DNA of 64,000 nt from Bdellovibrionales bacterium (GTDB lineage Bacteria > Bdellovibrionota > Bdellovibrionia > Bdellovibrionales > JAUICD01). Made by a program: the position numbers and the translations under genes. Positions 39,719 to 59,282 of the stretch are shown piece by piece. A model generated the notes under the pieces. It had not been told where the DNA came from. It saw nothing but the letters and a program-made list of their open reading frames with translations, and searched no databases. The stretch covers positions 288,001 through 352,000 of the forward strand of contig CBDANC010000014.1 in NCBI GenBank assembly GCA_965197425.1, written 5' to 3'. Each line of letters begins with the position of its first letter. Within the stretch, counting starts at the first letter, position 1.

Positions 39719-39940
39719 ATAAAGGTCTTCCTAATGAGGCTAATAAAAGTTGATTGGCGTAGCGGTGTGCAAAGCACGTCGCTGAGCAAAGAAACTTTTT
39801 TAGCTGAATGGTTGCCCAGCTCTGGACACGATGCCGATCCCGTCACTAAAGGTCTTCGCTGAAACTGAAAGTTGCCTTGGCGAAATACAGTGCGAAGCAC
39901 AAGTGTAGCCAAGGTACTTTCAGTATCAGAGTTGCCCAGC
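39719..39940 (+). repeat. Modular hairpin repeat array (2 units)
   Basis: Second unit 39849-39940 is identical to 43449-43540. Confidence 0.92.
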
Positions 39941-40362
39941 AGATAACTCTCCTTAAAACAATATCTTTTGTCATAGGATTTATAAGTTTCGTAGAAAGAA
40001 TAAAATGTGTGCAATTATTGGAATTTAACTGGCTGTAACAAAATTTGTTAACACAAATTACCCTTTTACATGGTTAGAAATGGAGGTTGACATATGACCA
40101 AATAAATTGCATATTGTTCACAAATACTTAGGTCCTGTACCGCTTATTGGTTGAAGTTTGCATGTAGCCGGGTTTCCGCTTTGTAAATAATATACAACAC
40201 ATAGAAAACATTAGAAACGCCCCTCCCCTTACATTAAGTTTTGTATATTTTCGCATATTAGGTTTTGTGTATTATATTTTGCTATAAGTGGTGGTAGGGT
40301 TTGAAAAGTATAAATTATAGATTATGAATTTAAACATGTAGATTGCGTAGGAGGTTTATTAT

Positions 40363-42465
40363 ATGACTAATCCACTAAGTTCAAATTTTTTTCAGTTCAC
40401 ATTAGCATCGTTTTTTGTGCTTTTTTTGGCTAGCATTGCCAACGCTCAATGCTTGGTATCCCCTCGTGGAGATGAGAGTTGGGCAAACCTTCCTGTATAT
40501 GAGGCGGCTTTTATAAGAGCTGCAGAGAAGGCTGATGGGAGCTGCTTAATACACATGTTGGAAGAAGAGCAGGTGAACATAAATGTACAAGATGATAGAG
40601 GGAACACCGCAGTTATTTTATTGGCCTCAAGACCAGGAATAATACCAGCGGATTTGGTTAAAAAGCTAGTTACATATGCTTACATAGATCTGACTATTAG
40701 AAATAATGGAGGATTAAATGTCTTCGATATGGCTAGCTATGGTAATCAAAGGGTGCTTCTTTTTTTAAATGAATTACTTGCTGATCATTCTAGTACTTTT
40801 TTGGATTCTATTGCCAATAGAAATATACAAGCAGTCCAAAGAGCAATTAACTTTGGTGTAGACCCTAACATTAGACATGAAGGTCCTAACGGTGAGACTG
40901 CTCTAATGGTTGCTGCTAGAGCAAGATATCTTCCTGTGGCTGAAGCTATTTTGAATTCATCTACTCCTGTGGATATAAACTACCAGCTTGATAACGGAGA
41001 AACAGCCTTAATGATTGGTGTACATAGCTGGCATATGGTTGACACACTTTTAGAGCGTGAAGACATAGATGTAAATATTGAAGATTTAAATGATAGAACT
41101 GCATTAATTCATGCAGTTTTTGATAGAAACAACAGTTCTGTTAGACGTCTATTACAAGTAGAAAACATAGATGTTAATGTAACAGATGTGGGTGGGGAAA
41201 CAGCACTTTTAGCAGCTAAAAGACTTAATGAACCGGAAATAGTAAACATCTTAAAGCCTTATGTTTCGATGGCGTTACACAAAGCTAGTATCGAGGGTGA
41301 TGTCAGCACTGTGAATTCTATTATATCTCAAATTGTACATGACAATACACCAGATGCAAACACCAGTGATCTTATAAACTCAAAGGACTCGAACGGAAAC
41401 ACTCCTTTAATGAATGCTGTCTTGAGTGAGAGTGAATCAAAAAATACTGTGGTTCGTACTTTAATTTCTGCATCAAACATTGATTTAAATGCTTCCAATC
41501 AAAGAAAAGAAACAGCTCTACTACTTGCCGCGAGGGTTGGGGATTCATCTGCTTTTAGACAGATCTTATCCTCTGACAAATTAGAAGATGTAAATGCTCG
41601 GGATAGATATGACAGAACTGCACTGATGAATGCCTCTCTTTCTGGAGCATTAGAAATTGTGAATCAACTTTTGACTTTTGAAGGAACTAATATCGGCATT
41701 AGGAACAGGTCTAATGAGTCAGCTAAGAGAATTGCAGAAAGACTCGGTCACTCAGATATAGTAGCCGTATTAGAGGAAGCTGAGATCGTAGCAAAAGAGA
41801 AATTTTTTGAAGCTTCTAGATCAGGAGACATGGAAGCGTTAAGGTTATATCAAACTGGATTTGATATAAATATAAGAGAAGAAAATAGAGATGGCAGTAC
41901 TGCTTTGATAAATGCTGCCAGAAGTGATCATACATCTATGGTAGAAGAGTTATTAAAATTCCCGAATATAGATGTAAATGCTAAATCATATGATGGTTCT
42001 ACAGCTTTGACTGCGGCTTCACAGCTTGGACATGCAGATGTGGTCAATCTACTTATAAATAATGTCGAAACCCATTTAGATGTATTTGGTAAACAAGGAA
42101 GAACTGCCTTTATGTGGGCTGCTATCTCTGGCAATAATATCATTATTATTAATAACCTCATGGCAAAGAACGCTGATCTTACCCTTGAAGACAAAGAACG
42201 CGGGTTTACTGCATTGATGTTTGCAGCTCAGAGAAGAAAAATAAGTGTTCTTGAACGAATTCTACCTCATAAAGACGTAGGTGTATCTGATATAGAAAAA
42301 GCCATGGAGGTGACAAGAAGCGGGGAAGTGTTAGATTTGTTAGAACAGCACAGACTTGATAAAATGACTGTTGGTGAAAGAATTAGCAATTGGTGGAAAA
42401 AACACTTTTCAGGAGGATCGGAAGCTTTCTCTTTCGAACCCTTTCCAAGAAATGAAATTTATTGA
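40363..42465 (+). CDS. Secreted ankyrin-repeat protein
   Basis: AGGAGG SD; signal peptide ending ANA; many G.TAL..A...IDVN repeats. Confidence 0.9.
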   Translation: MTNPLSSNFFQFTLASFFVLFLASIANAQCLVSPRGDESWANLPVYEAAFIRAAEKADGSCLIHMLEEEQVNINVQDDRGNTAVILLASRPGIIPADLVKKLVTYAYIDLTIRNNGGLNVFDMASYGNQRVLLFLNELLADHSSTFLDSIANRNIQAVQRAINFGVDPNIRHEGPNGETALMVAARARYLPVAEAILNSSTPVDINYQLDNGETALMIGVHSWHMVDTLLEREDIDVNIEDLNDRTALIHAVFDRNNSSVRRLLQVENIDVNVTDVGGETALLAAKRLNEPEIVNILKPYVSMALHKASIEGDVSTVNSIISQIVHDNTPDANTSDLINSKDSNGNTPLMNAVLSESESKNTVVRTLISASNIDLNASNQRKETALLLAARVGDSSAFRQILSSDKLEDVNARDRYDRTALMNASLSGALEIVNQLLTFEGTNIGIRNRSNESAKRIAERLGHSDIVAVLEEAEIVAKEKFFEASRSGDMEALRLYQTGFDINIREENRDGSTALINAARSDHTSMVEELLKFPNIDVNAKSYDGSTALTAASQLGHADVVNLLINNVETHLDVFGKQGRTAFMWAAISGNNIIIINNLMAKNADLTLEDKERGFTALMFAAQRRKISVLERILPHKDVGVSDIEKAMEVTRSGEVLDLLEQHRLDKMTVGERISNWWKKHFSGGSEAFSFEPFPRNEIY

Positions 42466-42539
42466 TAAGATTTTTATATGACTAAATAAAAACAGATAGT
42501 CATATAGGAACTATTAATTTTAAAATCTAAAATTAAAAG

Positions 42540-42569
42540 ATGTCAGAGGTAGCACCTCTGGCATTTTTT
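42540..42569 (+). terminator. Intrinsic terminator after the ankyrin gene
   Basis: atgtcagaggt-agc-acctctggcat followed by a T run. Confidence 0.7.
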
Positions 42570-42584
42570 GGTTATTAGTAAGGT

Positions 42585-43361
42585 ATGTCCAGAGTTTTAA
42601 TACATATAGAATACGACGGAACAAATTATAAGGGCTGGCAAAAACAACCTGGTAAAAAAACGATACAATCAGAACTGGAAAGCTGTTTAAAACAAATTTT
42701 TAAAACAAATATTTCTGTGTCAGGTTCTGGAAGAACAGATGCCAAAGTACACGCACTTAATCAAGTTGCACACTTTGATATGCCCAAACCATTTGAAACT
42801 CACAAGATAGCAAAGGCAATGAGTGCAAATTTGCCAAAAGATATTGTGGTTAAACATGCGAGCCCAGTTTCCCACAATTTTCACGCAAGAAAATCCTGTA
42901 TTAAAAAGACCTATATATACAAAATCTTCAATAGCCAATCACCCAGTTCTATTTTGAGAAATTACACTTGTTATGTATCCTATCCACTAGATCTAACCTA
43001 CTTAAATGATCTGGCAGGTTTCTTGATAGGAGAACATGATTTCACAAGTTTTAAGGCAACTAATTCAAATGCAAAAACTTCTGTAAGAACAATTTATCAG
43101 GCTAAGTGGGAGAAAAGTGGAAGTCATGTTAAATTTTTGATTGAGGCAAATGGATTTCTAAAGCAGATGATAAGAAACATAGTAGGAACACTTTTATACA
43201 TGAATTTAAAAAAAATGCCTAAAAGTACATTATCAAAAATAATAGAATCAAGAGATAGAACCAAGGCCTTTAAAGCAGCTCCACCACAAGGGTTATATCT
43301 AAAAAGATGCTATTTTAATAATAAAGGTGAGCTTAATGAGGCTAATAAGATGGATTGGTGA
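42585..43361 (+). CDS. truA: tRNA pseudouridine(38-40) synthase
   Basis: YDGTNYKGWQ, SGRTDAKVHA, FHAR, HDFTSF, APPQGLYL. Confidence 0.96.
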   Translation: MSRVLIHIEYDGTNYKGWQKQPGKKTIQSELESCLKQIFKTNISVSGSGRTDAKVHALNQVAHFDMPKPFETHKIAKAMSANLPKDIVVKHASPVSHNFHARKSCIKKTYIYKIFNSQSPSSILRNYTCYVSYPLDLTYLNDLAGFLIGEHDFTSFKATNSNAKTSVRTIYQAKWEKSGSHVKFLIEANGFLKQMIRNIVGTLLYMNLKKMPKSTLSKIIESRDRTKAFKAAPPQGLYLKRCYFNNKGELNEANKMDW

Positions 43362-58428: not shown

Positions 58429-58501
58429 GTCTCCTTTTTTAGAAAAAATATTTGCTCCATAGTTTTTATCTGGGGGGAAATATTTTTTAAAAAAAGGAGA
58501 C
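58429..58501 (-). promoter_or_regulatory. Long hairpin covering the SD of the four-helix gene
   Basis: gtctccttttttagaaaaaatattt pairs with aaatattttttaaaaaaaggagac. Confidence 0.65.
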
Positions 58502-58503
58502 CA

Positions 58504-58551
58504 TCGCCTGACTACCTGTTTGCCCGCCTGCCAGAATGCCTGTCTGCCCGG
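58504..58551. repeat. Six degenerate 8-bp tandem units
   Basis: tcgcctga ctacctgt ttgcccgc ctgccaga atgcctgt ctgcccgg. Confidence 0.75.
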
Positions 58552-58615
58552 GTACTTAGTGATTGCTTTATATTATGCCTTGTGCTAATTGTTTTTTGGT
58601 CTTTAGGGAGTTGCT

Positions 58616-59008
58616 GTGAGTGCAAAGGCAAAAGTGAATGGGAAAACAAATGGTGCCACAGAGGATTTAGCCTCTGTTACTGGCAAACTTAACAAAAGCA
58701 ACGTGAATGTCTCTTTTTGCCCTGGGGATACTGTAGAGGTATATGTCAGGGTGAAAGAGGGAGAAAAGGAGAGGACCCAGGTTTTCAAAGGCTTGATACT
58801 AAAAGTCCAAGGCTCTGGTTGTGGAAGGTCTTTCACGGTAAGAAAAATTTCATATGGAGTTGGAGTGGAGAGAACCTTCCCTTTCACAAGCCCCTTCATA
58901 CAAAAAGTAAAGCTGATATCTCGTGGTGAAGTTAGAAGAGCAAAGCTATATTATATTAGAAATTTGAAGGGTAAGGCTGCTAGAATCAAATCTGAGTTGA
59001 CTAGATAA
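58616..59008 (+). CDS. rplS: 50S ribosomal protein L19
   Basis: [29 protein letters not shown]. Confidence 0.97.
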
Positions 59009-59019
59009 ATGTTCAAATC

Positions 59020-59282
59020 TAAAGGTCTTCCTAATCAAGCTAAAAAATGGATTGGTGAAATGGTAAGACGGAGTCCAAATGTAACCAAGGCATTTTTTAG
59101 CTTGATGGTTGCCCAGCTCTAGAACACGATGCCGATCCCTTTGCCAAAGATCTTCCTAACGAGGACAAAAAACCGACTGCAAAGGAGGTTCATCCAATTG
59201 GATAACATAAAGATTCATCCCGTGAGCCAATTGAACCAAAGGCAACAAGTCCACTTGTTTTTATCCTCATTCGGAAGACTTT
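59020..59282 (+). repeat. Modular hairpin repeat array (2 units; second has inverted termini)
   Basis: 59146-59282 is bounded by aaagatcttcctaacgaggacaaaaa and tttttatcctcattcggaagacttt. Confidence 0.92.

Follow-up and report, generated by a model that had tools for sequence, protein, structure and literature searches.

Modular hairpin repeats with compensatory stem changes in a Bdellovibrionales genome and its sister species

An earlier note on a 64-kb stretch of a Bdellovibrionales genome (hereafter the window; contig C14, 288001-352000, of the genome that we call G000) pointed to hairpins between positions 39730 and 59110 whose stems seemed to change in sequence without losing their fold, and whose apices resembled loops known to be stable in single-stranded DNA. 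What are these hairpins, is their fold under constraint, and in which molecule is it read? The window hairpins are copies of a single genome-wide, modular, non-coding repeat family rather than isolated oddities, and the data support a constraint on the hairpin fold. New here are the strong covariation of the stems, the occurrence of the same architecture in a second species and the non-random apical loops. The 1.6-Mb genome G000 comprises 15 contigs, with about 35.5% G+C and 99.4% completeness. The sister genome, G001, is the only other one of the same genus and consists of one complete contig of 1,600,901 nt.

A repeat family whose stems covary

The repeat units are intergenic and 60-210 nt long. 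They open with the left flank AAGGTCTTC(C), which leads into an imperfect hairpin core that exists in several alternative types; the right flank GGTTGCCCAGC comes next and is usually trailed by a conserved tail, of which there are three kinds of ~30 nt each. The subsequent unit often begins right after the tail. Short units (about 56) span 60-71 nt, and long units (47) span 92-99 nt, with two distinct outer stems around one homologous inner hairpin. More than 20 composites consist of a short unit that contains a TTCAATTGG...CCAATTGAA hairpin module at one constant position, with the same internal junction. Rarer core combinations also occur, degenerate and truncated copies are common, and units are found singly, in head-to-tail chains or nested within each other. 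The stems vary by covariation, while the flanks, the internal loops and a C-G-closed purine-N-A apex are conserved.

Three stems cited in the earlier note as compensatory proved genuine, with small corrections to two of them. The stem at 59036-59049 pairs with 59091-59104 as a perfect 14-bp helix. The one placed near 43340 truly starts at 43341, with 43341-43352 pairing to 43393-43403 around one bulged T. The third, at 48384, has a 13-letter 5' arm, one 'a' more than had been quoted, whose partner at 48438-48449 leaves one bulge and one T.G pair. Four window hairpins were folded as DNA on both strands, giving z values of -3.5 to -7.6, and for any of these eight folds none of 200 shuffled sequences was as good.

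For the long units, 44 distinct copies were aligned with MAFFT, and the structure was drawn on this alignment by hand. Standard pairs fill 91.1% of the cells, versus 78.4 +/- 0.7% after shuffling (0 of 500 shuffles reach the observed value), and sliding the partners by 1-3 columns leaves only 31-43% of the cells paired. Twenty of the 25 pairs have changed on both sides, and the covariation score is 0.435 versus 0.205 in the control. Because repeat copies are related, changes were also counted along a minimum spanning tree, which yielded 59 both-side changes versus 19.0 +/- 4.1 (maximum 36) when the 3' columns were randomly re-paired; in 53 of these 59, one paired state gives way to a different paired state. 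The long units have their apical stem in the forms GGAC/GTCC, GTGC/GCAC, GTAC/GTAC, GCAC/GTGC and GGGC/GCCC, on both outer-stem backgrounds, a pattern due either to repeated compensation or to module exchange among copies.

The short units behave in the same manner: with 54 distinct copies and 14 pairs predicted by RNAalifold, 96.9% of the cells are paired versus 88.9% after shuffling (0/300) and 15-46% after sliding, with 87 both-side cells versus 15.4 in the control. Copies in G001 keep the flanks, the inner hairpin and the purine-rich internal loops, and their outer stem is a wholly different A+T-rich sequence. An alignment of 32 distinct G001 copies, which was fitted to the model and leans toward the model's structure, has 97.3% of its cells paired versus 77.0% shuffled and 36-54% slid; 17 of the 25 pairs have changed on both sides, and the spanning tree gives 53 both-side changes versus 15.4 +/- 3.6. 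Thus, compensatory changes lie far above the shuffled, slid and spanning-tree controls in G000 and, independently, in G001, which bears out the covariation that the earlier note had proposed.

Pairing is also predicted between the two flanks of the short units (RNAalifold), with GG/CC, C/G and CC/GG pairs around T.T and T.C mismatches; these pairs are invariant within G000. Particular flank variants accompany each other in G001, AAGGTCTTC occurring alongside GTTGCCCAAC and AAGGCCCTTC alongside GTTGTGCAAC (loci L130-L163), which could preserve the flank helix or reflect plain co-inheritance. In that genome, GTTGCCCAAC is a near-palindrome, GTTG-NN-CAAC. An alignment of 104 solitary left ends showed a sharp left boundary, with at most 0.3 bits from -3 outwards and at least 1.5 bits from the first A of AAGG, and a weak T-A/C preference at -2/-1; the right ends are variable. 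The internal loop fitted no K-turn or other named RNA motif in a comparison made by eye only.

Copies, apical loops and distribution

The copies found in the window are the following.

39722 to 39857, plus strand: long unit (39722-39820) with left flank AAGGTCTTCC, apex gtgc-aaa-gcac and right flank GGTTGCCCAGC, plus a tail of ~35 nt
39849 to 39940, plus strand: long unit whose outer stem is of the second type (CTGAAAGTTGCC...), with apex gtgc-gaa-gcac, attached directly to the preceding tail; z -7.4
39683 to 39944, no strand: stretch absent from a related strain, covering both the 39722 and the 39849 units
43324 to 43448, plus strand: long unit (43324-43419) with variant left flank AAGGTGAGC and apex ggac-aaa-gtcc, plus tail
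43449 to 43570, plus strand: long unit (43449-43540) with the second type of outer stem and the same sequence as 39849-39940, followed by a tail that continues into octamer-like CAGGCAGT repeats
48168 to 48364, plus strand: composite between the shared flanks, combining two hairpin modules, one of CCCAACACTGATTGA type and one reading TTCAATTGG...CCAATTGAA
48368 to 48464, plus strand: long unit with degenerate flanks, apex gtac-aaa-gtac
48543 to 48598, plus strand: truncated long unit, its 5' arm alone joined to the right flank
57722 to 57847, plus strand: long unit (57722-57815), apex ggac-aaa-gtcc, plus tail
57844 to 57937, plus strand: short-type unit with variant flanks between two identical long units (nhmmer match 57884-57947)
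57939 to 58069, plus strand: long unit (57939-58032) identical to 57722-57815, plus tail
59022 to 59155, plus strand: long unit (59022-59117) with a perfect 14-bp outer stem and apex gac-gga-gtc, plus tail; z -7.1
59156 to 59285, minus strand: family modules in opposite orientation (CAATTGG module and short-unit arm), abutting the rnhB start at 59283; 59184-59282 is 92% like 25290-25388 in a repeat comparison of the window
16090 to 16223, plus strand: nested arrangement, a short unit with an inserted CAATTGG module, outside the range of the earlier note
21718 to 21934, plus strand: short unit with tail and modules, apex tggc-aaa-gcca at 21893, likewise outside that range
25017 to 25389, minus strand: two composite units, tggc-aaa-gcca at 25178, likewise outside that range
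8447 to 8513, minus strand: solitary short unit

Most of the apices listed in the earlier note are located where it had placed them: ggac-aaa-gtcc (43368), gtac-aaa-gtac (48414), gtgc-aaa-gcac (39766), gtgc-gaa-gcac (39890 and 43490) and gac-gga-gtc (59067). The remaining one, tggc-aaa-gcca, does occur in the window but only at the two positions given above, away from the others. An energy-filtered regular-expression search for hairpins and a naive census of loops both caught unrelated hairpins, and counts based on the alignments were used instead. All 44 distinct long apices are closed by a C-G pair, 42 of their loops read purine-N-A, and 17 begin with G (CAAAG 22, CGAAG 12, CAGAG 3, CGGAG 3, CGTAG 1, CGCAG 1, CAGGG 1, CAAGG 1). 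The loops are thus not random, as had been surmised. The G001 apices carry the same triloops and also tetraloops, GTAA (4), ACAA (2), GCAA, ATAA and AGAA. When all element DNA is taken together, triloops that sit on stems of 4 bp or more have C-G as the closing pair in 98 cases, G-C in 5, T-A in 47 and A-T in 9; many of the T-A-closed cases are probably not genuine apices. In other module types, the same strand has TTT, TAT, TTC or TCT enclosed by C and G, which puts a purine-N-A loop on the opposite strand.

This loop type recalls the DNA mini-hairpins. The available passages of two sources (PMC13037366, PMC3201870) describe d(GNA) triloops as very stable in DNA, closure by C:G being 2-3 kcal/mol more favourable than closure by G:C, and report melting near 76 deg C for GCGNAGC and GCGNNAGC mini-hairpins made of DNA, while a GNNA mini-hairpin (GCGAAAGC) melts at 39.0 deg C as RNA versus 76.5 deg C as DNA. 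The same passages mention mini-hairpins at single-strand initiation sites and phage N4 promoters, and cite a solved AAA hairpin, d(GTACAAAGTAC), whose letters are the same as those of the apex at 48414. As far as these passages go, they bear out the stability in DNA that the earlier note had ascribed to C(GNA)G and C(AAA)G triloops. The apices of the repeat family have the C:G closing pair, a loop starting with G (or A) and a loop ending with A; the 42 copies with a C-(purine-N-A)-G apex, and the tri- and tetraloops of G001, are of the same kind as those described in the passages. Two differences should be noted. In the available text, the published mini-hairpins are isolated, in vitro or at phage or plasmid origins, whereas here they cap a 60-80-nt hairpin in a dispersed repeat, and AAA outnumbers GNA in the family, 22 versus 17 of 44.

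Genome-wide, a hidden Markov model built from six window copies gave 164 nhmmer matches in G000. Searching for both flanks, AAGGTCTTC followed by TTGCCCAGC with at most one mismatch per motif, collected 146 stretches, eight of which were judged spurious and excluded from later counts (32 nt twice, 37, 46, 58, 161, 180 and 237 nt). Merged element DNA amounts to 151 regions and 20,575 nt, ~1.3% of the genome. Identical units occur at separate genomic places in six groups, and units occupy tandem, convergent and divergent gaps between genes. In multi-unit clusters, all units lie head-to-tail in the same orientation in 24 of 25 cases. Contigs from four other sequencing runs carry the family at raised depth.

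The covariance model built from the 44 long copies gave 86 matches in G000, 34 full-length matches in G001 and none in another 39 relatives from the same family and order. A BLAST search with a 224-nt element found no match in 30 relatives, although this method also missed the sister species. In public collections, the pattern AAGGTCTTCC-N43-73-GGTTGCCCAGC hit 25 loci in genome_contigs, a collection of species-representative genomes, and 34 loci in metagenome_contigs, with one match each; the records of G000 itself may be excluded from both scans. These hits were dismissed as chance matches in unrelated DNA: the nine genome loci inspected have 47-71% G+C, and all 34 metagenome loci have 42-73%. 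An Rfam search of the window at gathering scores identified three tRNAs only and no family matching the units; at E values up to 1, the sole match in 57600-59300 was mir-202 (E 0.4), which we judged to be chance. Literature searches, motif strings included, returned no description of the family, and the repeat-element papers among the matches listed were without Bdellovibrio.

Which strand and which molecule

Folding energies single out a strand, the one reading AAGG...CCCAGC (top strand), but not a molecule. This strand is predicted to be stabler than its complement with DNA parameters in 38/44 long units, 31/32 G001 units and 48/54 short units, and with RNA parameters in 42/44 long and 30/32 G001 units. 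Stem mismatches in the long units of G000 comprise 50 G.T, 29 A.C, 62 purine.purine and 5 pyrimidine.pyrimidine; the corresponding numbers are 52, 12, 7 and 4 in the short units, and 40, 5, 9 and 7 in G001. Together, the excess of G.T and the predicted stability appear to favour one strand.

The fold might accordingly be selected in RNA, with the units co-transcribed as folded untranslated regions that end transcription or alter mRNA stability. An action at the RNA level has been proposed for BOX, ERIC, REP and Correia elements. Many units lie at gene ends: the unit at 59022 begins 14 nt downstream of the rplS stop codon, and truA ends inside 43324-43419. In the short units, the inner hairpin is preceded by an A run and trailed by a T run, which gives it a terminator-like look in both directions. 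G.T wobble pairs are common, the GTAA and GCAA tetraloops of G001 are of the GNRA type, and the stability of the top strand under RNA parameters also fits. Pneumococcal repeats are thought to act in this way in the available portion of PMC3049150.

The orientation of the units relative to genes gives a divided picture. In G000, 49 units are antisense and 29 sense in tandem gaps, 28 lie in convergent gaps and 22 in divergent ones; by cluster, the top strand is antisense in 43 cases and sense in 24 (p 0.03), contrary to what action in a transcript would suggest. The trend is opposite in G001, whose 27 clusters are distributed as 11 sense, 2 antisense, 8 divergent and 6 convergent, so that 11 of its 13 tandem gaps have the top strand as sense. 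No consistent strand bias with respect to neighbouring genes thus emerged from the two genomes. We also rejected the idea that the strand with the purine triloop is the sense strand, as the counts at cluster level were 20 to 17, with 30 clusters lacking a majority. Other observations speak against RNA as well: 22 of the 146 G000 units and 8 of the 27 G001 clusters lie between divergent genes, the left-end alignment revealed no conserved promoter upstream of solitary units, and no Rfam family matched. Moreover, the C-G-closed triloops correspond to the DNA optimum, and the GNNA mini-hairpin melts far lower as RNA in the passages available. A tail variant of G001 that resembles TTGCCC-N16-TATAAA was considered as a promoter, but this is unsupported, as its -10 letters differ between copies. 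On balance, we regard selection in RNA as possible but doubtful.

If the fold did belong to RNA, the units might instead be independent small-RNA genes, since conserved loops and covarying stems are typical of structured RNA families. Nevertheless, the units show neither a conserved upstream promoter nor an Rfam match, and their copies are chained, nested and truncated. A family of small-RNA genes is therefore very improbable. Altogether, we lean towards DNA as the folded molecule because of the loop type and because the orientation of the units is not tied to transcription.

A DNA structure could also serve the host, as a cruciform or single-strand landmark for a protein involved in nucleoid organization, topoisomerase action or priming, without being actively mobile. 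To evaluate this, we examined 27 G001 clusters for synteny, 13 of which have both flanks within 7 kb on one G000 contig; the others were set aside (one cluster spanning 78 kb, seven with an unmatched flank and six with flanks on different contigs). Of these 13 syntenic sites occupied in G001, seven also hold an element in G000, versus roughly 3.4 expected, and six hold none. Use by the host would also agree with the conservation of the flanks across species, with the near-palindrome GTTGCCCAAC, with good folding of both strands, with a C-G closure that is the same on both strands, and with the mini-hairpins described at single-strand initiation sites and phage N4 promoters in the passages cited above. 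Against it, the family was not found in the 39 other relatives and thus serves no conserved housekeeping need, the occupied sites vary between strains and species, and degenerate and truncated copies are common. We know of no binding protein for the units. Host use without mobility therefore appears unlikely.

Probable mobility, candidate enzymes and neighbouring genes

Which sites are occupied varies from strain to strain and from one of the two species to the other. A contig of run X4 joins position 39682 to position 39945, with 8 other letters in place of the 262 nt that harbour two units, which represents a presence/absence polymorphism. It is not a clean empty site, because 262 nt are replaced by 8.

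The earlier note had suggested that the structure is selected and read as folded single-stranded DNA, for example by an HUH nuclease or a recombinase. The constraint on the fold is supported; the enzymes named are not. In the model of REP/REPIN or IS200/IS605 elements, an HUH (Y1) transposase cuts the hairpins and moves them in the form of folded single-stranded DNA. The family shares the logic of conserved letters beside a hairpin with variable letters, its loops are of the DNA mini-hairpin type, and G.T mismatches exceed A.C ones, so one strand is favoured. In G000, the top strand coincides with the strand that is locally richer in C 71 times and with the opposite one 37 times at +/-25 kb, so that orientation is biased 2:1 against the local GC skew. 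This bias is gone at +/-10 kb (61 to 47), and the GC skew of G000 tracks gene orientation. No replichore bias was detected in the complete G001: of all origin/terminus placements, the best divides the 28 clusters 18:10, and 400 of 500 permutations do as well. The units are head-to-tail rather than in inverted pairs. PF01797 (Y1 HUH, RAYT) gave 0 matches in G000 and G001, while control genomes were matched (6/14 known genomes), and no TnpB was found. Because neither genome has a Y1 HUH gene, and there is neither a replichore bias nor a consistent gene orientation, the HUH idea fails, and this already weakened mechanism retains hardly any credibility. Elements derived from IS200/IS605 (PATEs) were rejected on similar grounds, with 0 matches to PF01797 and PF07282 and an orientation not tied to replication in G001.

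Searches for other mobilizing enzymes were largely negative. PF00589 (tyrosine recombinases, including XerC/XerD) had 0 matches in G000 and G001, although 14/14 control genomes were matched and all 13 other relatives searched have 2-17 each. No IS110, TnpB (PF07282), rve or reverse transcriptase match was obtained in G000. PF04986 (Y2 HUH) gave 0 matches as well, but so did the control genomes, so that this blank carries no weight. The only DDE transposase of G000 is encoded on contig C11 (5853-7499), in an element spanning C11:5733-7683 with inverted ends at 5733 and 7670. Integron attC sites, whose core consensus is RYYYAAC / GTTRRRY, were also discarded, as PF00589 is absent from both genomes and the flanks AAGGTCTTCC and GGTTGCCCAGC do not fit these cores.

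Our preferred reading is that of genus-specific modular hairpin repeats kept by compensatory change, likely non-autonomous mobile DNA, whose fold would be read in single-stranded or cruciform DNA by some enzyme; we give it about an even chance of being right. The units would spread, or would once have spread, as non-autonomous mobile DNA, their fold would be recognized in single-stranded or cruciform DNA by an enzyme acting in trans, and compensatory base changes would maintain the long imperfect hairpin. Mobility is the likely origin of the copies, and the trans-acting enzyme is likewise an inference. A bolder version, in which the units are moved by a new kind of enzyme that reads mini-hairpin-capped DNA, in a genus without a matching transposase and lacking Xer-type recombinases, strikes us as improbable.

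Several observations weigh against mobile, enzyme-read DNA. No mover was found, G000 being without Y1 HUH, IS110, TnpB, rve, tyrosine recombinase and reverse transcriptase; contig C11 is devoid of repeat units, and the ends of its DDE element, TCCTGAGTTTGACA, are unrelated to the repeat flanks. No target-site duplication could be defined, and the sole strain polymorphism does not provide a clean empty site. Sharing of 7/13 sites, versus ~0.26 expected per site, also fits old, retained, possibly useful elements. As to the folded strand, the short and other modules bear pyrimidine triloops on the strand where the long modules bear purine ones, the flank helix has its T.T and T.C mismatches on the AAGG...CCCAGC strand, and recent single changes in G000 yield G.T (38) and A.C (36) about equally. 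Finally, the shuffle controls overstate significance, since repeat copies share kinship, and nearest-neighbour energies ignore the special stability of triloops.

To our knowledge, small dispersed hairpin repeats such as REP, BOX, ERIC and Correia are common, and in most cases it is not known what moves them or what the fold is for. The family is a further case of this kind, nearest to BOX in behaviour and to REP in logic. The comparison with BOX of Streptococcus pneumoniae (boxA-boxB(n)-boxC), together with RUP and SPRITE, is one of architecture and not of sequence homology. As described in the available portion of PMC3049150, these elements are likewise small (under about 200-600 bp), modular, length-variable, intergenic and tightly folded, with many copies in a small genome, presence in the closest sister species and no transposase of their own. 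Fixed end flanks enclosing alternative, nested or chained cores indicate a similar working rather than membership. Unlike what that portion describes, the shared ends of the family are not simple inverted repeats of an insertion sequence in the same genome, constant flanks enclose alternative hairpin cores, substitutions in the stems are compensatory, and C-G pairs close apical loops of the purine-N-A type.

With REP, BIME and REPIN elements, as far as the available text of PMC3337134 describes them, the family shares extragenic palindromes in many copies, a hairpin beside conserved letters and a fold kept over sequence. It departs from the REP/REPIN-RAYT system in that no RAYT is present in either genome and units are direct, not inverted, with one orientation in 24/25 clusters. 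The hairpins are also longer (60-80 nt) and A+T-rich, whereas REP stems are short and G+C-rich. [quoted passage not shown] Its units are small, non-coding, A+T-rich, intergenic and hairpin-folding, as for MITEs in general. In contrast to MITEs, the arms covary rather than being conserved as a transposase-binding sequence, no target duplication was shown, and there are no terminal inverted repeats in common with a full-length insertion sequence, the only such ends being the unrelated TCCTGAGTTTGACA.

In practical terms, this is a new family of a familiar kind, without a new principle. As a case it is unusually clean: the architecture is common to two species whose stem letters differ, the flanks are constant, and the apical loops are of the most DNA-stable type. 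As both genomes are small and nearly free of known transposases and recombinases, the search for the acting factor is narrower. The repeat is also a ready marker to distinguish strains of an uncultured, predator-like bacterium.

Contig C15 of G000 has two clusters of three paralogous multi-helix-turn-helix proteins (HTH_Tnp_1 and relatives), at 241255-246286 and 344777-347488, with no catalytic domain seen; they could be candidate DNA-binding proteins for the repeats. Contig C11 (52.5 kb) contains several ankyrin genes and M12 metallopeptidase paralogues; a plasmid, an island and DNA of foreign origin are all possible identities for it. The truA frame (pseudouridine synthase, 42585-43361) has its TGA stop inside the 43324-43419 hairpin, such that its last ~12 codons are repeat-derived.

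We also considered PF05635 cassettes as partners of the repeats, as several of them adjoin units. They were rejected because they are absent from G001 (0 matches), which has the hairpins, and common (11-19) in relatives without hairpins. PF05635 (23S rRNA intervening-sequence protein, a four-helix bundle) is the largest paralogue family of G000, with 19 matches. Most of its copies have a common conserved leader and arrays of ~8-nt tandem repeats on both sides (GGCAATCR, CAGGCAGT, GGGATCTG), and two copies are located in the window, at 58127-58420 and 22808-23101, both on the minus strand.

The window harbours other repeats. A 70-nt repeat is present in three tandem copies at 1735-1944, two of them identical and the third 66% alike. 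Another, of 50-125 nt, occurs three times in 26871-28469 at a spacing of 594-857 nt and probably marks three paralogous small genes. Ankyrin-repeat genes, which are unusual for free-living bacteria, are found at 9852-10740 and 40363-42465, with several more paralogues elsewhere in G000.

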